Part shown: in pieces, positions 106 through 12,062 of the stretch
Position numbering within the stretch: position 1 is the stretch's first letter
Layout: every line of letters begins with the position of its first letter
NCBI GenBank assembly: GCA_964648205.1
Contig: CAZYNT010000010.1
Coordinates: forward strand, 1 to 24,000
DNA: 24,000 nucleotides
Source: an uncultured Gammaproteobacteria bacterium
GTDB taxonomy: Bacteria > Patescibacteriota > Patescibacteriia > Patescibacteriales > UBA12465
Direction of reading: 5' to 3'
Made by a program: the position numbers and the translations under genes
The notes under the pieces: model-generated
The model's database searches: none
What the model was told of the DNA's origin: nothing
What the model saw: only the letters and a program-made list of their open reading frames with translations

Positions 106-2637
106 CTACTTAGAAAAAAACATTTCATCATCGTCTTCAAAAGGCCTGGAGTTAATACTCGGCTTCTCTTTCTTGGCCGGCCTGGAATCTTCCGGCTCAG
201 GCACCGGCCGATCTTTGGTTATTTCTTCGATAATTTCATCTTCGTCTTCAATAACTTCCTCTTCTTGTTCAGGAGTTAATGATAATTCTTCTTTTATTTC
301 TTCTTCCGTTCCCTCTTCTGTTCCCTCTTCATCATTTTTAAAAACTAAAGCATCATCATCGCCTTCTTCATCTCCCAAATAATTATCCGGAACGCTGGCC
401 GCTTTTCTATCGTGCACCGGTATACCGCTCACCGCTTCAGTCGTCGCTTCATACTCTTCTTGAGAAACCAGGACTTCGCGCGGCTTAGCACCGTTAGAAG
501 GCCCGATAATCTGCGCTTCCTCGAGCATATCTAAAATTTTGGCGGCCCGGCCATAACCGATTGACAGCCGGCGCTGCAGCATCGAAGTCGAAGCTTTGTT
601 CGCCTTGATGATAATTTCCTTGGCTGCTTCGAATAATTCATCTTCATCGCCGTGATTACCGTCAAGCCCGACGCCGGCATTGCCGCCGACTTTTTGGCGG
701 TCGGTCACTCCCTCCAAATATTCAGCCGGACCGCTCTTATCCTTAATATAATTGACGACATCATTAATTTCACTATCGCTTAAATATGCTCCCTGGATTC
801 TTTTCGGCTTGGCGAATTCGGCGGTCATAAATAACATATCACCTTGGCCCAAAAGCTTTTCGGCTCCCGAAGAATCTAAAATCGTCTTGGAATCGACCAG
901 CGAGGCGACAGAAAAAGCGATGCGGGTCGGCACGTTCGCCTTGATTAAACCGGTAATGACATCGACGCTCGGCCGTTGCGTCGCTAAAATCAAATGGATG
1001 CCAATAGCGCGGGACATCTGCGCCAAACGAATAATCGCCGCTTCCATATCCTTGCCGCTGGTCATCATAAAATCGGCCAGCTCATCGATAATAAAAACAA
1101 TATAAGGCAATTTTTCTTTAGCCGTTGGATTATAAGATTGGATATTGCGCTTCCCTGCTTTGTTTAAAATGTCATAGCGGCGCTCCATCTCGTTCAAACA
1201 CCACTTGAGGGCGTTAATGGTCTTGTTAACATCAGTGATGACCGGAGTTAATAAATGAGGAATGCCGTTATAAGTCGGGAGTTCAACTCTTTTCGGATCA
1301 ACCATAATAAAGCGCAAATCTTCGGGATTGTTCTGATACAATAAACTGACGATAATCGCGTTCAAACAGACAGACTTGCCGGAGTTGGTCGCTCCCGCTA
1401 CCAGCAAATGGGGCATGCGTGTCAAATCATAGAGCCAAGCCGTGCCAGCCACATCTTTACCCAGCGCGACGAACAGATTATTTTTACGATCTTTGAACGC
1501 CTGGTCTTCTAATATTTCCCTGAGGCCGACAATCGCTTTCGCACGGTTAGGAACTTCGACGCCGACCAGAGATTTCCCCGGAATGGGCGCTTCGATTCTT
1601 ATCGGATGAGCCGCCAAAGAAAGCGACAGGTCGTTATTTAAAGTGGTAATGCGCGACAGCTTAACTCCCTCGGCGGGACGAAATGTATATTGGGTTACCG
1701 TTGGGCCGACTTTAGTTTCGCCCATTTCCACTTCAATTCCGAACTTCTCCAAAGTTTTCTGAATTTTCATGGCATTAGCTTCTGTGTCGCCACCAATCGC
1801 CTTAGAAAATTTATTATTCAAAAGCTCCAGAGGCAAATCTATCTTGATGGAACGCTTGGGCCAGGTTATTTTTTCTTGGACTTTCGGCCTGTCTTTCTGC
1901 GCCTGAACTTTGCTGGGCGCTAAAACTTCGCTCTCTTCGTCTTCTTTTACATCGCTTGGATCGGGTTTAACTTCTTTTTGCTGCCAGCTGTTTAAAATTT
2001 CATCGCGGGCCTCGGCGATAAATTTCTTGCCCTCGCTGTCTTCCAATCCGCTGCTTGAAAATAAATTTTTAAAGAATAAGGCGAAGGGCCGGAATATCTT
2101 GGCGAAAAAACTTTCTCGGCCGATTATGCGGGAAAGTGAAGTATTAAATACCAAAACCAAGGAAATCAAAAAGAGGGCGATTAAAACTAAAACGCCCCCC
2201 CAAAAACCAAAAATATAAAAAAATAATTCGCTCAAATACAGGCCGACATACCCACCCCCGATGCCGAGCTTAACCGTCGCTTCCCAATTAGACTGATTGA
2301 TGAAAAAATGAAACAGAGTTTGATAAGAAACAAAAAGAAGGCCCAATCCTAAATAATCGCTAAATTTCAAGGGATTTTTTGTTTTTCTAATTAAAAGCAA
2401 AGCCCAATACAAAAAAATCAACGGGACCAGCCATTTGCCGAAGCCGAATATCAGCGTGAGCCATTTTGATAAGAATTCGCCAAAATGCCCGGAAAGGTTG
2501 AACAAGCCGAGCAAACTAACCAGGCCCAAAACAATCAGGCCGACAATAATAATGCTACGTTTGGCGCGTTCGTCGAGATTAAACTCCGGCAGAGCGACAT
2601 AATCCATCGGATTGGTAGATTTTTTCTTGCGGGACAT
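106..2637 (-). CDS. ftsK: DNA translocase, FtsK/SpoIIIE family
   Basis: Track ORF 106..2685. It has N-terminal multi-pass hydrophobic segments, Walker A GATNSGKS and Walker B-like FIIDELADFMM. The gamma winged-helix SMLQRRLSIGYGRAAKILDMLE is present. Start trimmed to the ATG at 2637 (MSRKKKS) because the 16 upstream codons look non-native. An unusual ~130-aa acidic tail follows the gamma domain. Confidence 0.9.
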   Translation of the reverse strand: MSRKKKSTNPMDYVALPEFNLDERAKRSIIIVGLIVLGLVSLLGLFNLSGHFGEFLSKWLTLIFGFGKWLVPLIFLYWALLLIRKTKNPLKFSDYLGLGLLFVSYQTLFHFFINQSNWEATVKLGIGGGYVGLYLSELFFYIFGFWGGVLVLIALFLISLVLVFNTSLSRIIGRESFFAKIFRPFALFFKNLFSSSGLEDSEGKKFIAEARDEILNSWQQKEVKPDPSDVKEDEESEVLAPSKVQAQKDRPKVQEKITWPKRSIKIDLPLELLNNKFSKAIGGDTEANAMKIQKTLEKFGIEVEMGETKVGPTVTQYTFRPAEGVKLSRITTLNNDLSLSLAAHPIRIEAPIPGKSLVGVEVPNRAKAIVGLREILEDQAFKDRKNNLFVALGKDVAGTAWLYDLTRMPHLLVAGATNSGKSVCLNAIIVSLLYQNNPEDLRFIMVDPKRVELPTYNGIPHLLTPVITDVNKTINALKWCLNEMERRYDILNKAGKRNIQSYNPTAKEKLPYIVFIIDELADFMMTSGKDMEAAIIRLAQMSRAIGIHLILATQRPSVDVITGLIKANVPTRIAFSVASLVDSKTILDSSGAEKLLGQGDMLFMTAEFAKPKRIQGAYLSDSEINDVVNYIKDKSGPAEYLEGVTDRQKVGGNAGVGLDGNHGDEDELFEAAKEIIIKANKASTSMLQRRLSIGYGRAAKILDMLEEAQIIGPSNGAKPREVLVSQEEYEATTEAVSGIPVHDRKAASVPDNYLGDEEGDDDALVFKNDEEGTEEGTEEEIKEELSLTPEQEEEVIEDEDEIIEEITKDRPVPEPEDSRPAKKEKPSINSRPFEDDDEMFFSK

Positions 2638-2700
2638 ATAAATTAAATAAAAAATGCTAACTTTTACATTTTTATTATACCACACCGCGAATCTAAAGCC

Positions 2701-3741: not shown

Positions 3742-3796
3742 ATTATAATAGAATATTATATTAATAGGATATTATATAAAAAGAGGGATGTAAATA

Positions 3797-3930
3797 AAAC
3801 CCCGCCAATAATCTGTAGAGCGCGGCCGGACGTTTTCGGCGTCCGGCGGACGAGAAGCCAATCCTTATTTAGGAGAGAGTTTTTAAATAAGAACCTTACT
3901 TCTCCGCTCTACAGGTTACTAGCGGGGTTT
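3797..3930 (-). ncRNA. Structured three-way-junction RNA element of unknown class (candidate cis-leader/attenuator of the CDF gene, or a small RNA)
   Basis: Nested helices read directly: 3797-3805/3922-3930 (9 bp), 3813-3822/3905-3914 (10 bp), side hairpin 3825-3832/3840-3847 (8 bp), 3852-3857/3899-3904 (6 bp), and apical 3864-3871/3884-3891 (8 bp, 12-nt loop). Internal loop 3858-3863/3892-3898 pairs only in minus-sense RNA (U.G, A-U, G.U, U.G). The minus-sense closing helix is followed by UUUUAUUU. The element lies ~55 nt upstream of the CDF ATG. Strand assignment is tentative. Confidence 0.45.
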
Positions 3931-3980
3931 GGTTTTTGGGCCGAGGCCCGACTTGGTTTGTTTTTTTTCTTTTCTGAAGA

Positions 3981-4040
3981 CACTATTTTATAAAATAATG
4001 TTTTCGGGAAAGAAGCGAACCGGTTGAACGACCGGTTCGC
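3981..4040 (-). terminator. Junction module A: GC hairpin with CGUUCA loop plus AU-rich hairpin, downstream of the 217-aa gene
   Basis: Minus sense reads GCGAACCGGU-CGUUCA-ACCGGUUCGC (4015-4040, 10 bp), then UUCUUUCCCGAAA. Next comes hairpin ACAUUAUUUUA/UAAAAUAGUGU (about 3981-4003), whose U.G pair would be a C.A mismatch on the plus strand. The module starts 22 nt after the stop at 4062. Confidence 0.6.
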
Positions 4041-4061
4041 CAGAAACAATTAAGTTTGCTT

Positions 4062-4715
4062 CTAAATAAAGGAAAACTGCAATCTTCTTCTATATTCTGC
4101 TACGTCTTCCCTTCTAAGCAAAAATTCTCCTAACCAATAGGTTTGGTCGTATTTAGTATTCTTACTACGACCGCCTTCCTGCCAGGCAGAATTTTTTATT
4201 CTTTCTTCAGCTTCTTCCGGAGGGATACTGTTTAGATATTCCTTTACCCTCTCTATGCTGAGTACCTTACCCCAGAAATGCACCTCGTTAGTTCTGGTCG
4301 CCAAGTCTATTATCTCTTCTGGCGACCCGGAAATTAAAGTTTTTTGGAAATCCTTTCTGCTCTGCATAATTTCTGCAAACTCATAACCCATTCCAAAAAA
4401 CCCTTTTCCGTTCCATAGATCAAAGGCCTCTTTAAAAGAAACGTCCTCCCTCGTTATATATACTTCAACGAGTTTCGATGCTATAGTGTGGCAATCACTT
4501 GTACAATAGTCAGCATCTTCCATTTTTATGAAATGGTTAATGATACTCCAGGCTTTTGTCTTATCAACGTCCAGCCTTTTCACTACCACGCTCCACACCT
4601 CTTCTTTATTTTTTTTCTTAGCGTAGTCGATGAGTTCTTCGTAATTCATCTTTTCCAGTTCTTCCTCAGAGGTACCAAATGTTCTGAGTAAAAAATCATA
4701 ATTATCTTTAGCCAT
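4062..4715 (-). CDS. Hypothetical protein (217 aa from the preferred start)
   Basis: Track ORF 4062..4745 starts at a GTG. The in-frame ATG at 4715 (MAKDNYDF) is preceded by GGGGAGAAAA, a good Shine-Dalgarno. I recognise no family motif. Confidence 0.6.
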   Translation of the reverse strand: MAKDNYDFLLRTFGTSEEELEKMNYEELIDYAKKKNKEEVWSVVVKRLDVDKTKAWSIINHFIKMEDADYCTSDCHTIASKLVEVYITREDVSFKEAFDLWNGKGFFGMGYEFAEIMQSRKDFQKTLISGSPEEIIDLATRTNEVHFWGKVLSIERVKEYLNSIPPEEAEERIKNSAWQEGGRSKNTKYDQTYWLGEFLLRREDVAEYRRRLQFSFI

Positions 4716-4771
4716 TTTTCTCCCCGCGCTTACTTTACTCGTCACGGGTTTATTTTTTTAGTTAATACTGA

Positions 4772-4847
4772 TTTTATTCCCATCTCCACTTCTCGCTCTT
4801 GGGGATTAGGGCGCCCTGTTTTATGTCGAGGGAGGACAAAAGAAGAT
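4772..4847. repeat. Conserved intergenic element, copy 1 (partner at 9157-9221)
   Basis: Plus strand ttttattcccatctccacttctcgctcttggggattagggcgccctgttttatgtcgagggaggac aligns by eye with tttttttatccatctgaatttcgctcttaggatttatagcgctcaatttcatgtcgagagaagat at roughly three quarters identity. The central palindrome is GGGCGCCC (4809-4816). Confidence 0.6.
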
Positions 4848-4848
4848 T

Positions 4849-5112
4849 TCATTTTTTTAACGCCCGACGCAGAATTTCTGCAAAATCGCTAGAAGCGCCC
4901 GAATTTTCTTCTGGGCTCTCCTCGTATTTGCTTTCTTTCTGGTTTCCAAAATGATAGTCATAAACATAATTCTTGACATCATTTGGATCGGCGCCGCAAA
5001 AGAAATCCTGACCGCCAATGGAAATCAGGTGGTCATAAACCCGGCTCCGGCCGCAAACACCGACGATGTGTTCATCAATATCGTCAGTATTAAGAGCGGC
5101 TACGCTCTTCCG
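4849..5112 (-). other. 87-codon open frame with no ATG/GTG/TTG start, in the +1 frame relative to the helicase 3' end
   Basis: Hand translation of the minus strand from 5112 gives RKSVAALNTDDIDEHIVGVCGRSRVYDHLISIGGQDFFCGADPNDVKNYVYDYHFGNQKESKYEESPEENSGASSDFAEILRRALKK, ending at a TGA stop (4849-4851). The composition looks protein-like and there is no canonical start, so it is absent from the ORF track. Confidence 0.3.
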
Positions 5113-8100
5113 CTAAGCCCGCTAATTTTTCCATCAGGTCCTTAGCCTCGGAGATAGACTCTTCAGCTCCTGGAAAGTCGGCCTGGCCGGCAGCGCTAGA
5201 GGCAGAGGAAATCAGATCACGGATCTGATTAACTTCGTCAATTACTAAATCTGCAGGAATCTCATTGAGATAATTCTGAAATGATTCCTGAAATTTAGCG
5301 ACGAGTTCAATCGTCTCCGTGTTTTTTTGTTCCAGCTCAGATTTAACCAAAGCAATTTTTTCCTCAACTGCGGCAATGGTGTCGGAGATATTCTCAACAC
5401 TCAAATTAGCAATTGCCGAATCAACTGCTTCTGAAATCTGACGCTGGGCCAATTTGCCCAAAGCGGTCCAGGACCAGTAGCGATACCAGGGATGAACCTG
5501 TCCCAAGCTAGAGCCTGAATAATAGCCAATAAACGATCGAACGGCTTTTAGTGTTTCCACCTCGGCTTCTTCCTGGTTCTTTTTTAGAACCAAGCGCACT
5601 TGATCGCCGGACACGCAGAGAGATGGATAAGCACAAAGGCTTGAACCGTCATCCTTAACGGCGACTTCGATCGGCTTCAGCTGAACTAAAAGATTTTTTA
5701 AATTTTCCTGACCTTCCAGCCAAGAAGAATTAAAGCTTCTTTCCGCCTGCGACCAAGCTTCAGTTAAGCGCTTATTTTCAAAATAAGCTTTAACTTCCAC
5801 CCAGTCACAAAAGCTGTTATTCCAATCAACGCTGAGACTGACTGAACGACCGCCGGGTAGGGTAACTGCCCCCTCGGACTCTTTGGCCATCTGCTCAGTT
5901 ATTTGAATGCTGGCCTGATTTTCTGAATAGGAAACGTGAATTTCTTCGCCGTTAACTATTATTGAATCAGGATTCTCGGCCAAAATCTTAGCTTCCTTAG
6001 CGGCATCAATAACCGGCAGAAGCAATGATTCTGTTTGAGCGTCAGCGAGACGAGCCGTGCCGTTAAGCTTCTCACGGCAGAATTCTTGCCATTCCCAATT
6101 TGAATTCGGGCACAAGAAAATCTTTTCGCCAGAGCGCTGATTAAGCTCGCGCATCCGCTTCGCCGTGGCGACGTTCTGAGCGACAAAATCATATCCGGCC
6201 AGGCTATAGCCGTAATACAATTTGTTCGCCAACCATTGGGCGAAAACTTCAGCGGCCTGAGAATGATCAGGCGTTTCCACGACTTCTTCTTTAACGAGTA
6301 TGCCGTTAAAATAAGTCTGCCGCGTTGAAACGCATGCGTCTTTCTCTGAGTTGTATTGAGGATTTACCCCCTCAACAACCTTAGAAAGCTGCGGTGCGAC
6401 TTCGACGAGCATGGTCGGATTAACGCTCGTGGCCATCGTAACCAGGTGCAGAATCATCCGGCCACGGCGAGTCTGAATCTCAATATCAAACGGAAGTCCG
6501 ATAAGCCAGTCCCCACCGAATTGAAGTTCTTCTCTCGCCTGCTTGCGGATCGTGTCGTCACCGTTTTTCCATTCGCCCCAGCTAACCGACTTATAAAGAT
6601 GGTCGATCATGCCGGAACAGATGGCGCGCATAATATCATCCCGCTTCCCGGAACTCTGCAAAGAATGAACTTTGCCTTTCAGGGAATCGGTTAATAGACG
6701 GCGGCGATCATTAGCCTGATGATAGGCCTTAACAAAAAGGCCATTCAGACGACGGTCTTCGTTCGACAGATTTTTAGCGCCGCGAAAAATTGCCAGTTGA
6801 GCGAGAACATTACTGTCTTTCTCTTCCGGACAAAACTTCCGACGGGCTAAATCATTGCCATCTTCTTCGCTCCCGTCCGGCATTTTCACCTTCCGAGAAG
6901 TGATACCGCCCTGCTCGAGAATTGCAGCGACACTAATAATGTCACCAACTACTCCGAGCTTATCGGCCTCTACGATCATGCGACCATATTGGACCGAAAT
7001 AGGAAGGCGGGCAACCTGGCGGCCGGTGGAAGTTACTTCGCCGTTTTCATCCATACAGCCGAGAGCTCTTAAAGCCCTTTTAGCCTCATGGATCTGATCG
7101 AGAGGCGGCTGATGAAAAAAGCTAAGTTCTTCCGCGTCAATTTTGGCTTCAGCCAAACGGAGAACCGTCTGGTCTAAACGGACGCGAAGAATTTCAGCCA
7201 GCGGAAAATCTAAACGACCTTCGCCCTGGGGGCAATGATCAATGTAGATTCCTTCGCGGCAACGGCCAGCCCGGCCTTTACGCTGTGCGCGGTCAGCCAT
7301 GGAAATAGCGCGCAGGTATAAACCCTCAACGCCGTCCATCAGTTCAATCCGCTTTTCTGTGCCGTCATCAACCACAGCGTCGATGTCCTCGATAGTAATC
7401 GAAGTCTGCGCAACGTTCGTAGCGATGACGCACTTGGCGCGATCGTAAGTTCTGAAAACCTTATCCTGGTCTTCGGACTCCAACTCGCCATGGAGCGGCA
7501 ATATTTCCGCCTGCAGGCCTTCGACTTTTTTCAAAGCGGCAGTCAGTTCCAAAATTTCCGCTTTGCCCGGTTTAAAAACCAGAACATTGCGGCCTTCCTG
7601 AAGAAGGGTCGTAACATCCTGGAGAACGTTCAAGCTCTGCATCCTTTCGGAATGATCAGCCTGACGTTCCTCGACCGGATAACAGCGGCCTGGAACAGAA
7701 ATCACCGGCGCCGAACTAAAAAACTCAGATAATTTTTCCGCCTCTAACGTGGCGGACATTATCACGAGCTTGAAGGCGGCACCATTCTCAATCTGGCGTT
7801 TTGACCAAGCGGCCAAAACTTCCATATTAAGATTCCACTCGTGGACCTCGTCCAGCACCAGGATATGATGCCGTCCGACGCCCATCAATTCTCGCACCAG
7901 GGCTAAGCCATCGGTGCAGAAAAGACAACGGGTGCTGGCGGAATCCTGGCGCTCGTAAGCGGTCCGGAAACCAATTTCCTGCCCGAGCTCCCCGTTCCGT
8001 TCCTGAGCGACGCGTTTGGCCACTGAACGAGCGGCTAAACGGCGCGGCTGAGTCACGACCAAGGAATATCCTTCGTCGAGTAAGAACTGCGGCACGCGGG

Positions 8101-8209
8101 TTGATTTCCCGGCGCCAGTTTCAGCGGTGATTATCGTAACCGAGCTACTTCTCACCGAATTAATAATCTGGACCCGGAAATCATCAACGGGCAATTTCTG
8201 ATTCTTCAT
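5090..8209 (-). CDS. DEAH-box (HrpA/HrpB/DHX-like, superfamily 2) helicase with a long uncharacterised C-terminal region
   Basis: Motif I GAGKST (aa 32-37), Ia TQPRRLAARS, Ib TDG, II DEVH (aa 120-123), III SAT, and VI QRKGRAGR. An HA2-like segment follows (LRLAEAKIDAEELSFFHQPP...LPISVQYGRMIV). About 400 further residues have no motif I recognise, and the extreme C-terminus is probably coiled-coil. Confidence 0.85.
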   Translation of the reverse strand: MKNQKLPVDDFRVQIINSVRSSSVTIITAETGAGKSTRVPQFLLDEGYSLVVTQPRRLAARSVAKRVAQERNGELGQEIGFRTAYERQDSASTRCLFCTDGLALVRELMGVGRHHILVLDEVHEWNLNMEVLAAWSKRQIENGAAFKLVIMSATLEAEKLSEFFSSAPVISVPGRCYPVEERQADHSERMQSLNVLQDVTTLLQEGRNVLVFKPGKAEILELTAALKKVEGLQAEILPLHGELESEDQDKVFRTYDRAKCVIATNVAQTSITIEDIDAVVDDGTEKRIELMDGVEGLYLRAISMADRAQRKGRAGRCREGIYIDHCPQGEGRLDFPLAEILRVRLDQTVLRLAEAKIDAEELSFFHQPPLDQIHEAKRALRALGCMDENGEVTSTGRQVARLPISVQYGRMIVEADKLGVVGDIISVAAILEQGGITSRKVKMPDGSEEDGNDLARRKFCPEEKDSNVLAQLAIFRGAKNLSNEDRRLNGLFVKAYHQANDRRRLLTDSLKGKVHSLQSSGKRDDIMRAICSGMIDHLYKSVSWGEWKNGDDTIRKQAREELQFGGDWLIGLPFDIEIQTRRGRMILHLVTMATSVNPTMLVEVAPQLSKVVEGVNPQYNSEKDACVSTRQTYFNGILVKEEVVETPDHSQAAEVFAQWLANKLYYGYSLAGYDFVAQNVATAKRMRELNQRSGEKIFLCPNSNWEWQEFCREKLNGTARLADAQTESLLLPVIDAAKEAKILAENPDSIIVNGEEIHVSYSENQASIQITEQMAKESEGAVTLPGGRSVSLSVDWNNSFCDWVEVKAYFENKRLTEAWSQAERSFNSSWLEGQENLKNLLVQLKPIEVAVKDDGSSLCAYPSLCVSGDQVRLVLKKNQEEAEVETLKAVRSFIGYYSGSSLGQVHPWYRYWSWTALGKLAQRQISEAVDSAIANLSVENISDTIAAVEEKIALVKSELEQKNTETIELVAKFQESFQNYLNEIPADLVIDEVNQIRDLISSASSAAGQADFPGAEESISEAKDLMEKLAGLAEERSRS

Positions 8210-8216
8210 GGTTTAC

Positions 8217-8280
8217 AATTTTTAGATTGTTATCTAAAAAACAAAAGTTGATTTGTCTCTTAAATAACAATCTAAAAATT
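8217..8280 (-). promoter_or_regulatory. Perfect 17-bp inverted repeat immediately 5' of the helicase start codon
   Basis: aatttttagattgttat (8217-8233) is the exact reverse complement of ataacaatctaaaaatt (8264-8280). The spacer is 30 nt and contains an inner ACAAA/TTTGT pair. The repeat ends 7 nt before the ATG at 8209, and no Shine-Dalgarno is visible. Confidence 0.55.
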
Positions 8281-8321
8281 AACCTTTGAAAAATTTCTAC
8301 TCGTCCAAGAATTTCTTCTCT

Positions 8322-8385
8322 GAGACCACCATTTTAAAATGATGATCTCGGAAAGAAAGACGAGCATGAACGGCTCGTCTTCTTT
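8322..8385 (-). terminator. Junction module C: GC hairpin with CGUUCAU loop plus second hairpin, downstream of the 194-aa gene
   Basis: Minus sense reads AGACGAGC-CGUUCAU-GCUCGUCU (8358-8380, flanked by a further A/U extension), then UUCUUUCC. Next comes hairpin GAGAUCAUCAUUUU/AAAAUGGUGGUCUC (8322-8349). Its two U.G pairs are C.A mismatches on the plus strand. Confidence 0.6.
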
Positions 8386-8404
8386 GAACATTTTTCGCCG
8401 TGTT

Positions 8405-8989
8405 TTATTCGGGGCTAGCTTCAAAATCACCCTCGTACTCGTAGTGTTCGAGTACTTGAAATGATTTTTCTACGCCGATGACATCAGCGATGCCATTAAT
8501 GTGATTAAAAATTATATCCTCTTTGTCGGGAGCGAGGATAATCTCCCCCTTAAGAGTCCGAACTTTCAGCACGGTTCGCTCCTTTTTATAGTACCCGTGA
8601 TTGCAGGTACCATATTCCTCAAATTTCCAGCACCCCATTCCGTCACAGCGGGAATGGTATTCGGAAATTTTGGAAACAAATCTCTCCCTGAGAAGAGACA
8701 CCATCCGATCGCCTCTTCCTTCGGCGACTTTTTCCAACCGCTCCAGGTTGATAATTTCCCTGTCGCGAGAAGAAATTATTTCTTTAAAAGAGGTAACTTC
8801 TTTGAACATGACCTGGAAAATCCAGGTCCAAAAAACTGAGAAGGTGGTCCATAATGCCGCCATTCCCAATTCCGACCAGGACGGGTGCTCGGTTGGTGCA
8901 CACCTCATCCAAAGGAATACTGATATCCACCACATGCACATGATTGCGATGATGGTGTTGGTTGTTCTTTTTGTTTTCATTTTTTTCAT
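8405..8989 (-). CDS. Hypothetical membrane protein with a Cys/His cluster
   Basis: 194-aa ORF with two N-terminal hydrophobic helices (IIAIMCMWWISVFLWM and LGMAALWTTFSVFWTWIFQVMF). The soluble C-terminal domain contains CDGMGCWKFEEYGTCNH. No Shine-Dalgarno is obvious. Confidence 0.55.
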   Translation of the reverse strand: MKKMKTKRTTNTIIAIMCMWWISVFLWMRCAPTEHPSWSELGMAALWTTFSVFWTWIFQVMFKEVTSFKEIISSRDREIINLERLEKVAEGRGDRMVSLLRERFVSKISEYHSRCDGMGCWKFEEYGTCNHGYYKKERTVLKVRTLKGEIILAPDKEDIIFNHINGIADVIGVEKSFQVLEHYEYEGDFEASPE

Positions 8990-8998
8990 TTTTTTCAG

Positions 8999-9051
8999 TT
9001 TAAAGGTTTATCCAATACACCAAATTCTGATGCGCTAAATAAACCTTTAAA
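8999..9051 (-). promoter_or_regulatory. Perfect 13-bp inverted repeat immediately 5' of the 194-aa gene start
   Basis: tttaaaggtttat (8999-9011) is the exact reverse complement of ataaacctttaaa (9039-9051). The spacer is 27 nt, and the repeat ends 9 nt before the ATG at 8989. Confidence 0.5.
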
Positions 9052-9076
9052 TCGTAAAAATGAAAACTTCTTCTCT

Positions 9077-9140
9077 AAAAACATAATTTAAAATTATGTT
9101 TTTGGAAAAGAAGCGAACTGGATGAACAACCAGTTCGCTT
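9077..9140 (-). terminator. Junction module B: GC hairpin with UGUUCAU loop plus perfect AU palindrome, downstream of the 350-aa gene
   Basis: Minus sense reads AAGCGAACUGG-UUGUUCAU-CCAGUUCGCUU (9111-9140), then CUUUUCC. Next is a 13-bp perfect palindrome AAAAACAUAAUUU/AAAUUAUGUUUUU (9077-9103), followed by AGAGAAGAAG, which can pair back to the CUUUUC tract. The stem differs from module A by a compensated C-G to U-A change. Confidence 0.6.
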
Positions 9141-9156
9141 TTTAAACTTTAATTAA

Positions 9157-9221
9157 TTTTTTTATCCATCTGAATTTCGCTCTTAGGATTTATAGCGCTC
9201 AATTTCATGTCGAGAGAAGAT
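9157..9221. repeat. Conserved intergenic element, copy 2 (partner at 4772-4847)
   Basis: See copy 1. The central palindrome here is AGCGCT (9194-9199), where copy 1 has GGGCGCCC. The element begins ~15 nt after the stop of the 350-aa gene. Confidence 0.6.
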
Positions 9222-9236
9222 AGTGTCCATAATTCC

Positions 9237-10289
9237 CTACCTGGTGAATCCAGGCACAGAAACTATCTGGCCGTTCTCGCGGATGACCGCGGGGTGGCCA
9301 GTTGCCGGCGCGACCACGTCGGGACGGGCGCCGCCCAAGGCAGTCAGCAACATTCCGCTGACCACCAAAAACTTACCCGGTTGCGGCGCTGGCAGCCCGG
9401 TGACTTCACCGAACTTCTGTTCGGTGATGCCGTCGCCGTCGAAATCGGCAAACGACGCGGCCACGCGGGGAGCAGGGGCGGCGGGAATAAGGACCCGCCC
9501 ATCGTTAAGCCGCAGCATGTGCGGCGTCAGATTGACAAATTTTTCACCCAATGCGAACCGGGTGAAAAATTCTGCCTCAGTCTGGTTAGGGTAACCGCCC
9601 CAGTAGGCGGAGCCACCCGACTTGCCGAGACCGGAACCGCCGTTCCAGCCTTCGAACTTTTCTTTAAGGACAGCGCACAATTGTCCGTCCCCATAAAAAT
9701 TCACCTCCCCGTCGCCGGAGAGGACCAGGAGCTGGTCGTACTGACCGAATAAACGGTCAGTGACGGTTGCTGACTTGCTGTGCGAAAGGCGCACGATCGT
9801 CAGGCGACCGACGATTTCGCGACTGGCAATCGCGATTTCAGCGGCCGCTTCCTGCTCGGACGTAATACCCTGAGCGGAACGGTCGGCCAAGCGAACCTCA
9901 GCTACTTCCTCGGGCGTGACGTCCATTGCCATCATCGCCGGAATGTAGCCGCTGTCGTTGGCGGCGATGAGCTGCTGATAGCGGTTCGGCTCCAGGCCGA
10001 GCAGGTTCAACACCTGCAGGATGGAGGCCGGTTCCGCGGCTCGGTCGCCATGATGGTCGACCAGAATGACTCCTTCCGGCAGGTCGATGTCCTTGGTCAG
10101 CTCGACCAGAACCGGGACCTTGCCTGCGCTTGCCGCTTCAGCAATTTCAGTGGCATAGGCGGAGGCCGCGGCGCCCCAGCCCAAGTTATTATTTCTGACT
10201 TCGGCGCCGGTCACTGCCAGCACCTGAGCGATTTCGGTCATCTCGGCATCGCGTCCGCCGAGGAAAAATACAAAATTTTTCTTATTCAT
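9237..10289 (-). CDS. Hypothetical protein, strongly GC-enriched (350 aa from the preferred start)
   Basis: Track ORF 9237..10358. I prefer the ATG at 10289 (MNKKNFVFFLGGRDAEM), but the start is ambiguous. Hand counts of 60-nt lines give ~62-65% GC against ~32-42% in the right-hand genes. Three long spurious ORFs overlap it in other frames, as expected for stop-poor GC-rich DNA. Motifs seen are LVDHHG and DFDGDG. Confidence 0.6.
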   Translation of the reverse strand: MNKKNFVFFLGGRDAEMTEIAQVLAVTGAEVRNNNLGWGAAASAYATEIAEAASAGKVPVLVELTKDIDLPEGVILVDHHGDRAAEPASILQVLNLLGLEPNRYQQLIAANDSGYIPAMMAMDVTPEEVAEVRLADRSAQGITSEQEAAAEIAIASREIVGRLTIVRLSHSKSATVTDRLFGQYDQLLVLSGDGEVNFYGDGQLCAVLKEKFEGWNGGSGLGKSGGSAYWGGYPNQTEAEFFTRFALGEKFVNLTPHMLRLNDGRVLIPAAPAPRVAASFADFDGDGITEQKFGEVTGLPAPQPGKFLVVSGMLLTALGGARPDVVAPATGHPAVIRENGQIVSVPGFTR

Positions 10290-10418
10290 TTTTATTGCCG
10301 CTCTTAACGGCTTTTGTTTCCTCCGAAGTGACATTACCCGGATTATCCTGAGGCTCATCTTTTAAAATGAAACACAAAATAATCCGAACAATAGGCTTAA
10401 GTTAAAAATGAAAACAAA

Positions 10419-10480
10419 TTCGCTTTCGTCTTGCCGAAATAATCGGAAGACTCATCAGCCCGTCTGAGACGAGGAGCAAA
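10419..10480 (-). ncRNA. Hammerhead ribozyme, type III topology (candidate)
   Basis: Minus sense reads UUUGCU C CUCGUC-UCA-GACGGG CUGAUGA GUCUUCCGA-UUAUU-UCGGCAAGAC GAA AGCGAA. The CUGAUGA core is present, G10.1/C11.1 close stem II, and GAA, A15.1:U16.1 and C17 are in place. All three stems form; I and II are closed and III is open. The G.U pairs are consistent only with the minus strand. Confidence 0.75.
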
Positions 10481-10481
10481 A

Positions 10482-10506
10482 GGGGCAAGATTGAACGGCT
10501 TGCCCC
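10482..10506 (-). terminator. Junction module D hairpin (CGUUCAA-type loop) abutting the hammerhead; terminator function doubtful
   Basis: Minus sense reads GGGGCAAG-CCGUUCAAU-CUUGCCCC. The following UUUU is part of hammerhead stem III. The hairpin lies 140 nt downstream of the 78-aa gene stop. Confidence 0.4.
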
Positions 10507-10646
10507 CCGAACTTCCCGATGGCTAACGCCAAATCCTTTTCGAGAGAAAGGAACCCACTATTTTTTCTCCAACCGTAAGGGAATTTTATATTGGCTGGGT
10601 TTCATTCCCGGTTAATGCAGATTAGTGACTGCTCCCGGTTTTCAGT

Positions 10647-10888: not shown

Positions 10889-10935
10889 AAGCCTCAAGGA
10901 TGCTGCGTTCATAAATCGCTTCATCTTTAAGGCCT
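10889..10935 (-). promoter_or_regulatory. 5'-UTR hairpin sequestering the Shine-Dalgarno of the 78-aa gene
   Basis: Minus-sense AGGCCUUAA (10927-10935) pairs with UUGAGGCUU (10889-10897) over 9 bp, including two G.U pairs that are mismatches on the plus strand. The 29-nt spacer has inner GAUG/CAUC and GCG/CGC pairs. The 3' arm contains the GAGG Shine-Dalgarno and ends 5 nt before the AUG. Confidence 0.5.
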
Positions 10936-10989
10936 ATATATATCTAATTTAACTAATTTTTTAAACTAATTAATTTCGATTATTAAATT

Positions 10990-11633
10990 TTTAAAGTCCT
11001 TTCCCCTCCCGATACTCAGGTCCTGATCTATTTCGAGGAAATTTCCGGGCCCCAAACTTGTTCAAGGTTTGAGACTTCGGCCGATCTCCTCGTAAGAGAC
11101 GGTCGCGATAGCCGCTGTTCACTGATCCTTTTCTCCTTGCGGAAATACGGACACAAATTACTAGGATCGCCTGCGCCTTCGGATACGGTTTGCGACGTAC
11201 CCTCCGGATCGGCTCGACTAAACGCTGATTCTAACTGTTTAAGTTAGAAGCAAACGATAGGCGTTTTGCTAATCTCGGGACATGGACTCTCTCCCGGCTC
11301 ATTTTTTGAACCAATGGCTGTCCATTTCAATCTCCTAAAATCGGCAGTAAACGCTATTATTTTTATAATGTACTAAGAAATAATTTAACCGTTATTTCTT
11401 CGGCTGAGCTTGCGCTCCTTATCCGCAGGGCGGATAGTGATGAAGAGGAGCTACCGACAGTCTTGATAGGAATCTGTTAAAGCGGCATGGGTGATCACTT
11501 TAAACTTCATATTCGATTTTCCTGATAACTGTCATTTTTTATAGAACCGCAAATAAGTTTATTATGACTTTTTCGCAGTATCTAACTCTCTCCACTTCAT
11601 TACTATTCGTCTTGCTTTAGCGCCATTGGCACC
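10990..11633 (-). ncRNA. Structured non-coding region of unknown class (one or more RNAs; boundaries and strand tentative)
   Basis: No ORF of 60 aa or more. There are many GC-rich local helices in an AT-rich context. Examples are 11420-11436 (UAUCCGC/GCGGAUA) nested in 11414-11419/11446-11451, 11375-11400 (9-bp stem), 11232-11248 (TTCTAACT/AGTTAGAA) nested in AAACGC/GCGTTT, and 11276-11296 (CGGGA/UCCCG). Confidence 0.3.
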
Positions 11634-11658
11634 AAAAAAACTCTTCCGAGGAAAGAGT
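11634..11658 (-). terminator. Rho-independent terminator (minus strand)
   Basis: Minus sense reads ACUCUUU-CCUCG-GAAGAGU, a 7-bp stem including one U.G pair, followed directly by UUUUUUU (plus-strand a-run at 11634-11640). Confidence 0.6.
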
Positions 11659-12027
11659 TGTTATTATGATTAGGCGCGATAACAATTAAATGTAAATATT
11701 TGGCCGCTTAATCTAATGGCTCTCTCCTTCCATTAATTAATTTATTTTATTGTAATGTTCTGTCTCGCTAGGCCGAATTTTATCGGCGTCTTATCGGAGA
11801 CTGGGTCTTCCTCATCTTTCTTGATGAGAAGTGGCCGCTCGCCGCTAAGGCGTTTCCTGTCTATACCCTTCGAATTGGACCGACACCATGCTCTCTCCGT
11901 CATAATGTCCGCCACTCTAATTCAGCTAAGTATAGAATCAAGAAGTGTTTGACTTTCTATTGAATGTTTTATTGAATGAACTTTTGGATATTTCCGAATT
12001 TCTCTTTGGCCTTCTCTCACTTTCGAT
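11634..12027 (-). ncRNA. Candidate ~390-nt ncRNA bounded by a promoter and a terminator, with GGAGAGAG-loop hairpins
   Basis: The region lies between the minus-strand promoter (12034-12062) and the terminator (11634-11658), with no credible ORF. Hairpin 11884-11907 is CAUUAUG-ACGGAGAGAG-CAUGGUG, with two U.G pairs valid only on the minus strand. Hairpin 11714-11735 is UAAUGG-AAGGAGAGAG-CCAUUA. Other helices include CUUCUCAUC/GAUGAGGAAG and GCCGA/UCGGC, and AGUGGC/GCCACU encloses a domain. Confidence 0.4.
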
Positions 12028-12033
12028 ACTGAC

Positions 12034-12062
12034 AGTTTAGCACCCTTTGACAACTTTGTCAA
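12034..12062 (-). promoter_or_regulatory. Candidate sigma70-type promoter facing the non-coding region, embedded in the palindrome TTGACAA-CT-TTGTCAA
   Basis: On the minus strand: -35 TTGACA (12057-12062), a 17-nt spacer, then -10 TAAACT (12034-12039). The palindrome at 12047-12062 also yields a plus-strand TTGACA. Confidence 0.4.

Follow-up and report, generated by a model that had tools for sequence, protein, structure and literature searches.

What separates the genes of a long minus-strand series in the chromosome of an uncultured patescibacterium, and what do the similar hairpins at their junctions do? We examined these questions in the first 24,000 nucleotides (nt) of contig CAZYNT010000010.1 (assembly GCA_964648205.1; listed in GenBank as an uncultured Gammaproteobacteria bacterium), hereafter the window, where a preliminary description based on the letters alone had pointed out four intergenic junctions, A to D, with a GC-rich hairpin and a YGUUCA loop. 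The modules at these junctions fall within the series of minus-strand genes, and the best reading is that they stand in one long operon, which represents a variable-cargo island of Patescibacteria. Each module can be described as three parts: a single-stranded box, RGUUYRA(AAA); a GC-rich first hairpin (HP1) of 9-12 base pairs (bp) that displays the same box in its loop; and, abutting HP1, a putative cleavage element that is either a type III hammerhead or an AU-rich second hairpin (HP2).

Our own scan for minus-strand stems of at least 10 bp with GTTCA in the loop returned exactly four HP1 hairpins with stems of 10-11 bp, and these coincided with the four of the preliminary description (Table 1). 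Dinucleotide-shuffled sequences yielded a mean of 1.15 such hairpins, even at a laxer cut-off of 6 bp. In RNA folding, A, B and C formed two tandem hairpins (z-scores of -5 to -10). The succession of pyrimidine tract, AU-rich hairpin and purine tract after HP1, as first described, was also evident from the near-palindromic arms of HP2; those of B, 9067-9089 and 9091-9113, are each 23 nt long and 91% complementary, and HP2 of B folds with 19 pairs and one mismatch. Modules A and B share 86% identity over a 50-nt stretch, and their HP1 stems differ by the compensated change noted previously (aaccgg/ccggtt versus aactgg/ccagtt). The word GUUU(U)CAUUUU(U)A, said to be common to B and D with a third copy, occurs at three minus-strand sites (Table 1) against 0.18 expected, with the related GUUC(N)UU(R)AAAA standing after the hammerheads of two other loci, L001 and L033. 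The word AAAGGUU, which had been taken as a shared feature of B and C, is at chance level when counted as a bare word (6 found, 7.3 expected).

The modules are not confined to the window. Related Patescibacteria contigs, whose loci carry L numbers here, yielded about 25 additional copies, all of them directly after a stop codon, at a distance of a few to about 80 nt, and on the strand of the gene. L001, a locus in an 809-kb Patescibacteria metagenome-assembled genome (MAG) with a helicase 60% identical to that of the window, contains four junction modules, two with HP1 and a hammerhead and two with HP1 and HP2. The metagenome scan was carried out with a search pattern derived from HP2, and it is thus a test of HP2 and not of HP1. 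It gave 35 stretches, with ten unrelated contigs among these containing true modules, and in the 809-kb contig the pattern matched solely at the two known HP2 sites. In more distant islands, which were reached via a 143-amino-acid island protein, the junctions still consisted of HP1 with HP2 or HP1 with a hammerhead.

An alignment of 13 modules displayed 28 consensus pairs (9 in HP1 and 19 in HP2), 10 of them with compensatory changes, and one U.G pair was conserved in 12 of the 13. The covariance model built from this alignment detected untrained copies at 40-98 bits in L016, L021, L026 and L047, along with weaker two-hairpin modules in L005 and L007; in the window it recognized A, B and C only. 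What had been described as a paralogous family with compensatory stem changes is thus an orthologous one as well. HP1 stems are unrelated in sequence between paralogs and compensated between orthologs (B and C of the window versus L047), and the HP1 loop is therefore under selection of its own. In L047, the ortholog of the B hairpin carries compensated stem changes (GCGGACAG/CUGUCCGC) and keeps GUUCA, and that of the C hairpin (2204-2230) has the stem GGAGGCAAGC/GCUUGCCUUU and the loop CGUUCAA. Orthologs of the A hairpin are present in L001, L016, L021, L025, L033, L034 and L037, and the D hairpin has a positional counterpart with an unrelated stem (L001 4657-4683). Rfam 15 gave zero matches in the whole window at the gathering threshold; with all thresholds considered, no family matched the modules or the leader and terminal RNAs described below, and the sole match was the L001 hammerhead, below threshold. 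Viral contigs had no match to the HP1/HP2 junction (the 3' strand of HP1 plus the pyrimidine tract), and the junction is therefore without sign of a phage origin.

The box was then examined in 25 modules, taking the loop copy and the upstream copy separately. The same hexamer is found in the HP1 loop and in a single strand 2-8 nt upstream of HP1, with a box-to-box spacing of 18-23 nt as read from the sequences. In the loop copy, position 1 is G in 24/25, positions 2 and 3 are both U in 25/25, position 4 is C in 18, U in 6 and A in 1 (the inverted L037 loop), position 5 is A in 25/25, and position 6 is A in 19, U in 2 and C in 4. The upstream copy has G in 23/25, U in 25/25 at each of the next two positions, then C (21) or U (4), A (20), G (4) or U (1), and finally A (21), G (3) or C (1). 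Among stems of at least 8 bp in 203 kb of related sequence, GTTCA was the third commonest loop 5-mer, behind A/T runs only. The conservation of the loop claimed earlier therefore stands in the form of GUUYA in approximately 22 of 27 HP1 loops, far more than loops free of constraint would display; an invariant loop does not, with exceptions in L037, module 3 of L001, L003, L005, L007, L051 and L052, and with CUCGCAC in L050. In the last locus, the loops of all four junction hairpins (4857, 5429, 6724 and 10573, plus strand) read (A)CUCGCAC(U), with RCACUU upstream, and all five occurrences of the box word are on the gene strand. A box that is lineage-specific yet uniform within a genome is what would be expected of sites read by one co-evolving factor. 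Read on the opposite strand, the loop of the L037 hairpin (2816-2842), UUAAACUGA, gives the CCGUUUAA found in the loops of its orthologs, which looks like an inversion across the stem. Mimicry of a tRNA T-loop or of the TruB-type GUUCNANNC was considered for the HP1 loop and rejected, as the register disallows the G53-C61 closing pair and position 58 is unconserved.

At junction D, the place of HP2 is taken by a type III hammerhead-like ribozyme, as had been proposed. Read by eye, its elements are UUUGCUC^, stem I CUCGUC/GACGGG, CUGAUGA, stem II, GAAA and AGCGAA. It possesses the conserved core of RF00008, the A15.1-U16.1 pair, H17 at the predicted cleavage site and three helices, with stem III open and the other two closed by loops; the minimum free energy (MFE) fold includes stem I (6 bp) and stem II (5+4 bp). 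The long stem II of the window copy led a MAFFT alignment of the hammerhead modules to misplace this copy, and it was therefore decomposed by hand. Homologous hammerheads are located at equivalent junctions in L001, L033, L003, L049 and L052, so that HP1 with a hammerhead is represented in L001 (2), L033 (3), L003 (2), L049, L052 and the window. The counterpart in L001 scored 40.5 bits with Hammerhead_3 (E=6.8e-8), under the gathering score of 48.5, and the window copy gave no match to RF00008 even at E<=10 in a 161-nt search.

The geometry of the two versions is alike. The pyrimidine tract directly after HP1 pairs in both with a purine tract, forming either stem III or the base of HP2; stem III begins 0-2 nt after HP1, and HP1 ends 5-8 nt before the predicted hammerhead cleavage site. 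In addition, we found one orthologous junction at which the two are exchanged between genomes. A DHH-family gene is orthologous in L001, L033 and L021 (80-88% amino-acid identity), and the junction on its 3' side is HP1 plus hammerhead in L001 and L033 and HP1 plus HP2 in L021. This exchange indicates that the hammerhead and HP2 are interchangeable, in agreement with the earlier suggestion that the AU hairpins could be replacements of the hammerhead. The other half of that suggestion, a relationship with the ribozyme cassette, did not stand, as the AU hairpins are near-perfect helices of 21-23 rungs without an internal-loop core and unlike the hammerhead stems in sequence. Nor did the HP2 elements of A, B and C, which are near-continuous helices, have a catalytic core or match any Rfam ribozyme at E<=10. 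HP2 thus substitutes functionally for the hammerhead without being a relative of the ribozyme. A reading of HP2 as a hammerhead in degenerate or permuted form was also rejected; the words CGAAA ... CAGAAGA, which recall GAAA/CUGAUGA, enclose one hairpin only, without a junction.

HP2 was composed of 19 consensus pairs, two internal mismatched rungs and loop-proximal pairs in all 19 distinct copies, amounting to about 21-23 rungs, and it has the helix length associated with RNase III (about two turns, roughly 20 bp or more). As to the strand, the U.G pairs of the second hairpins pointed out in the preliminary description are present and extend to the family: in the paired columns of these 19 copies, G.U cells outnumber A.C cells by 55 to 8, and one U.G pair is found in 18/19. 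Two internal positions are C.A mismatches (7/19 and 18/19 copies), which would be G.U on the opposite strand. These positions leave the sense strand favoured but not overwhelmingly, and mismatched cells number 38 in the sense and 60 on the other strand. The strand is settled by the hammerheads, which share HP1 and its position and are readable on the gene strand only. These results clearly revealed a family of modules that is conserved, displays covariation, and has a fixed strand and position.

Table 1. Features of the window discussed in the text (coordinates from its first nucleotide; empty cells, no value given)
Feature	Position	Strand	Description and basis
HP1 of D	10480-10508	minus	GGGGGGCAAG-CCGTTCAAT-CTTGCCCCTT; 10-bp GC-rich stem, loop CCGUUCAAU; scan and RNA fold
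Upstream single-stranded box of D	10509-10512	minus	GUUC, degenerate form of GUUCAA; read from sequence
Type III hammerhead-like ribozyme of D	10419-10480	minus	stem III UUUGCU/AGCGAA; predicted cut after C10474; core scan
Post-module box after D	10403-10415	minus	GUUUUCAUUUUUA; second copy 10362-10373; word count
HP1 of B	9111-9140	minus	AAGCGAACTGG-TTGTTCAT-CCAGTTCGCTT; 11-bp stem, loop UUGUUCAU; scan and RNA fold
Upstream single-stranded box of B	9142-9147	minus	GUUUAA
HP2 of B	9067-9113	minus	pyrimidine and purine tracts close AU-rich hairpin of about 21 rungs; covariance model 93 bits
Post-module box after B	9055-9067	minus	GUUUUCAUUUUUA; word count
HP1 of C	8356-8382	minus	GAAGACGAGC-CGTTCAT-GCTCGTCTTT; 10-bp stem, loop CGUUCAU
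Upstream single-stranded box of C	8384-8389	minus	GUUCAA
HP2 of C	8312-8358	minus	UUUCUUUCC, then GAGAUCAUCAUU-UUAA-AAUGGUGGUCUC, then AGAGAAGAAA; conserved U.G pairs; 75 bits
HP1 of A	4014-4041	minus	GGCGAACCGGT-CGTTCA-ACCGGTTCGCT; 11-bp stem; terminal module of operon
HP2 of A	3967-4014	minus	25-nt arms; covariance model 92 bits
Leader hairpin	11049-11075	minus	loop CUUGAACAA, complementary to GUUCAA boxes; candidate docking partner
FtsK gene	106-2685		Pfam scan of window
Minus-strand gene series		minus	78-amino-acid open reading frame; 350-amino-acid protein; 194-amino-acid protein; DEAH helicase; 227-amino-acid protein
HrpA/HrpB-like DEAH helicase gene	5090-8209	minus	Pfam scan

Taking into account the position of the modules and the exchange of a ribozyme with a long helix, we consider that they are intercistronic processing modules, a reading to which we assign a probability of about one half. 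The operon would begin with a conserved leader of about 1.1 kb and be followed by a conserved structured RNA, and its polycistronic RNA would be cut at each junction, with the hammerhead cutting itself and HP2 being cut by an RNase III-type, double-strand-specific endonuclease. The upstream message would then end in HP1 and a short tail, of 5-8 nt where a hammerhead has cut, with HP1 forming a 3' cap that resists 3' exonucleases, and the downstream message would gain a defined 5' end. The box, present twice in each module, would be the recognition element of one shared factor, either a complementary leader loop or a protein. Cleavage at the junctions, RNase III as the enzyme, protection by HP1 and the reader of the box are predictions from sequence.

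Several observations weigh against this reading. A purely protective 3' hairpin needs no conserved loop, and part of the function is therefore left unexplained. The A-run on the 5' side of many HP1 copies, as read from the sequences, resembles a good antisense terminator. The hammerhead of D is missed by the Rfam model, the loop of its stem I is just 3 nt, and its hand-built fold (-19.9 kcal/mol) lies 2.7 kcal/mol above the MFE (-22.6 kcal/mol). Two hammerheads of L033 (9300 and 11963) have CCGAUGAG for CUGAUGAG, a U4C change in the core with stems and context intact, and may be natural variants of low or no activity. Support for RNase III does not go beyond the helix length of HP2, and HP2 exhibits a sequence conservation that this enzyme would not need, namely CAUCAUU/AAUGGUG and the conserved C.A mismatch.

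What factor could read the box? The leader (10890-12060, minus strand), which extends over about 1.1 kb from a promoter-like site at 12062-12034 to the first open reading frame (ORF) of the island, is itself without an ORF, and its DNA is 75-86% identical to the equivalent regions of L033, L001, L016 and L025. It is much better conserved than the island proteins and contains four GGAGAGAG words (11898, 11727, 11593 and 11294), of which two or more stand in hairpin loops. With no match in Rfam, it is probably a large structured leader or a non-coding RNA. The last element of the leader, a long and conserved hairpin, has a stem of about 24 bp and many G.U pairs on the gene strand. The 9-nt leader loop in Table 1 is invariant in five genomes. 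The UUGAAC of this loop is the exact complement of GUUCAA and can form 6-8 contiguous pairs with most HP1 loops; the common box variants (C4 to U, A5 to G and A6 to G) keep the pairing by wobble, and U2 and U3 are unchanged. The earlier guess of a protein- or RNA-recognition hairpin fits such a complementary loop. In L049, the homologous leader loop is CUGAAC and one junction loop is GUUCAG. In L050, the box CUCGCACU at four junctions is complementary to AGUGCGA at 3937 in the leader, a site outside the homologous leader hairpin. In shuffled leaders, a complement appeared at some position with P=0.034 for L050 and, for the main family, with P of about 0.2. Owing to these modest controls and to the non-homologous site in L050, the pairing is suggestive only, and we propose tentatively, with the balance against it, that the boxes are docking sites for the leader RNA of the same operon, through kissing or loop-to-strand pairs of 6-8 bp at every junction. 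All junctions would then be marked by one RNA element, be it for processing, for antitermination or for folding; the box and leader data would also be explained by a co-evolving protein. An apparent loop-loop covariation in L005 (GUGCAA versus UUGCAC) was discounted because the shared core UGCA is palindromic.

We also considered that the modules are terminators or insulators. HP1 would then stop the polymerase, partly in the sense direction or bidirectionally, the genes would have their own starts or be attenuated stepwise, and HP2 or the hammerhead would tidy up read-through. A stable GC-rich HP1 followed by the U-containing tract UUCUUUYCC in HP2-type modules speaks for such a function, and in many copies the A-run 5' of the stem gives the opposite strand a hairpin followed by UUUUUUGAAC, the canonical terminator shape. 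An Rfam model of a terminator-containing small RNA also matched the plus strand of B weakly. On the other hand, this A-run is absent from modules A and D of the window, and the sense tails of the hammerhead-type modules, CCGUC, CCAUC and UCCCUC, have no U-tract. With a terminator taken as a GC-rich hairpin and an immediate U-tract of at least 5 U in 8 nt, a consensus scan flagged none of the four HP1 hairpins on the minus strand of the window, the tails being UUCUUUCC or CCGUC. The same contigs contain canonical terminators elsewhere, with at least 6 U and a short loop (L001 12472, L003 11199 and L033 2122), which, together with a covariance model confined to A, B and C in the window and an HP2 pattern confined to the two known HP2 modules of the 809-kb genome, distinguishes the modules from generic terminators of the organism. 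A scan of the window detected no promoter-like sites after the modules, and neither a conserved loop nor an adjoining ribozyme is needed by a terminator. The modules are thus distinct from canonical terminators, and termination as their main role is unlikely; antisense termination is kept as a rival or an additional role.

A nut-like antitermination system appears improbable. It would treat the linear boxes (GUUCAAAA upstream, GUUC-N-UU-R-AAAA downstream) as boxA and HP1 as boxB, with the complex reloaded at each junction. A linear box combined with a conserved-loop hairpin and repeated along one operon does recall such sites, and the post-module boxes AUGUUCUUUGAUAG (L001), AGUUCGUUGAAAAA (L033) and GUUCUUUAAAAAG (L051) resemble known boxA sequences, of which the Gram-positive form is UGUUCUUUGAAAAC. 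The boxA of E. coli is GCUCUUUAACAA (PMC2724277). However, GUUCAA, the best-conserved box, is without the U-run central to boxA, and the replacement of the box by CUCGCAC in L050 is unlikely for a site of the universally conserved NusB/S10.

Recombination sites at cassette boundaries as in attC, whose consensus cores are RYYYAAC ... GTTRRRY, palindromic operators or a selfish miniature repeat would act at the level of DNA, and could be invoked because the modules border genes that differ between genomes with inter-genome homology starting exactly at the box, because HP2 is a long near-palindrome, and because the L037 loop inversion is of the type made by stem-mediated DNA flipping, but HP2 can be replaced by a hammerhead, which is meaningful as RNA only, G.U exceeds A.C on the gene strand, all copies have a single orientation relative to transcription, the box-to-box spacing varies, and the attC cores are absent when compared by eye with the consensus, leaving this explanation the least probable. 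By eye, the modules end in CUUCUUU.../...AGAAGAA and the box GTTCAA has C where attC requires R; no integrase family was found among the window ORFs scanned.

As for the surroundings of the processing modules, Pfam scans indicate that the window is an ordinary bacterial chromosome, which also encodes a cation-efflux protein, RuvC, YebC, glycogen synthase, a GH57 enzyme and a TrmB-like regulator. Within the minus-strand series, the 350-amino-acid protein matches the PADLOC families C3a116 (E 3e-67) and DHH_CorA (E 1e-50), which are DHH hydrolases accessory to type III CRISPR. Relatives of the helicase were found in Patescibacteria-type MAGs only, and an exact search for it in public assemblies gave no record. 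Its ORF stops at 5090, and the last ~90 residues (FCGADPNDVK...) continue in the +1 frame (4861-5106, minus strand); the corresponding C-terminal residues are in frame in L001. A 12-bp hairpin (5056-5091, minus strand), whose loop AUUGAUGAACAC includes the complement of the box, lies right at the frame break, which may reflect an indel of the assembly, a pseudogene or programmed frameshifting. The island cargo varies between genomes and looks defence- or conflict-related (window 9237-10358, minus strand; L001 2879-4596; L026; L033), comprising the DHH hydrolase (C3a116/DHH_CorA), a protein of the Mvol_0529 family, MoxR-AAA with VWA, the HrpA-like helicase and a protein with a weak match to Csx3. 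L025 has an island of one gene, set between leader and terminal module. As for cassette boundaries, which the preliminary description had proposed to check, the modules mark the gene borders within this genome-variable cargo. Co-transcription of the island genes is plausible, with no promoter-like sites after the modules and one upstream of the leader.

Further conserved elements accompany the modules. Motif X, of about 50 nt, is situated between the stop codon and the box of B (9177-9220, minus strand), with a paralogous copy at 4793-4836 and the consensus CYCGACAUnAAAUUGRGCGCUnUAAUCYYUAAGAGCGAAAU..GGAURRGAAAA. It was also found in L001, L016, L025, L026, L034 and L047, occupying the stop-codon-to-box position in some modules. 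Its consensus structure, with 9 weak pairs, and the lack of any Rfam match led us to reject it as a pistol, hammerhead or other ribozyme. Long AU-rich hairpins with arms of 19-29 bp are present directly 5' of the downstream start codons (8217-8280, 8990-9060 and 10339-10386, minus strand), in positions kept in L016, L021, L025 and L047, and may serve as additional processing sites or in the control of translation. We also observed, beside the terminal module, a structured RNA of about 150-180 nt (3785-3965, likely plus strand) with a 25-bp closing helix (AAAACCCCGCC..CUGUAGAGCG / CGCUCUACAG..GCGGGGUUU) and an internal GGAGAGAG loop. It has a fold z-score of -6, is followed by a plus-strand terminator (3936-3960), and is without an Rfam match. 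This RNA adjoins the terminal module in the window and in L001, L016, L021, L025, L026, L033, L034, L037, L049, L050 and L052.

Clustered hammerheads flanking genes have been described in bacterial prophage operons, with the proposal that they divide a long RNA into messages of gene length (Perreault et al. 2011, PMC3088659). The present hammerheads are similar in that several are found between co-oriented genes of one transcription unit and in their type III topology. They differ in that each is joined, on its upstream side, to a hairpin whose loop carries a conserved box, that a plain long hairpin replaces the ribozyme at half or more of the junctions, and that the host is a chromosomal Patescibacteria island and not a recognisable prophage. 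A literature search linking hammerheads with Patescibacteria or the candidate phyla radiation returned nothing relevant. In phage T7, early and late mRNAs contain intercistronic RNase III hairpins, and cleavage leaves a stabilising 3' hairpin on the upstream message. The modules share with T7 the paralogous hairpins of about two helical turns between cistrons, where cleavage is in our case only predicted, but HP2 is distinguished by the preceding GC-rich hairpin, the conserved U.G and C.A positions and its exchangeability with a ribozyme.

Intrinsic terminators have in common with the modules a GC-rich hairpin after the stop codon, a pyrimidine-rich 3' flank and, in many copies, an A-run on the 5' side; unlike them, the modules lack a proper sense U-tract, above all in the hammerhead versions, and conserve a loop of 7-9 nt. 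The nut sites of lambdoid phages and rRNA operons likewise combine a linear box with a sequence-dependent hairpin loop, and some downstream boxes are boxA-like, whereas here the box stands both in a loop and in a single strand, is lineage-specific (GUUCAA versus CUCGCAC), recurs at every junction and is joined to a cleavage element. In the synthetic insulator RiboJ, a self-cleaving hammerhead with a hairpin beside it likewise decouples adjoining genetic parts at the level of RNA. Our modules are natural, have the hairpin upstream of the cut with a conserved box, and exist in a version without a ribozyme. What is new here is the composite build of the module, its box present in duplicate, a junction at which ribozyme and hairpin replace each other, and a leader loop complementary to the box.

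One junction type served by either a ribozyme or a hairpin cut by a protein would make the debated purpose of bacterial hammerheads directly testable. To the RNA biology of Patescibacteria, which is almost unexplored, our results add a structured RNA family absent from Rfam, together with the long conserved leader and the structured RNA next to the terminal module. If true, the pairing of boxes with the leader would be a new way to coordinate an operon via RNA-RNA contacts. The island genes are typical of conflict and defence (DHH hydrolase, HrpA-like helicase, MoxR-VWA and Csx3-like), raising the possibility of a link to defence, and the modules may be the wiring that allows defence-type cassettes to be exchanged and yet still be expressed.

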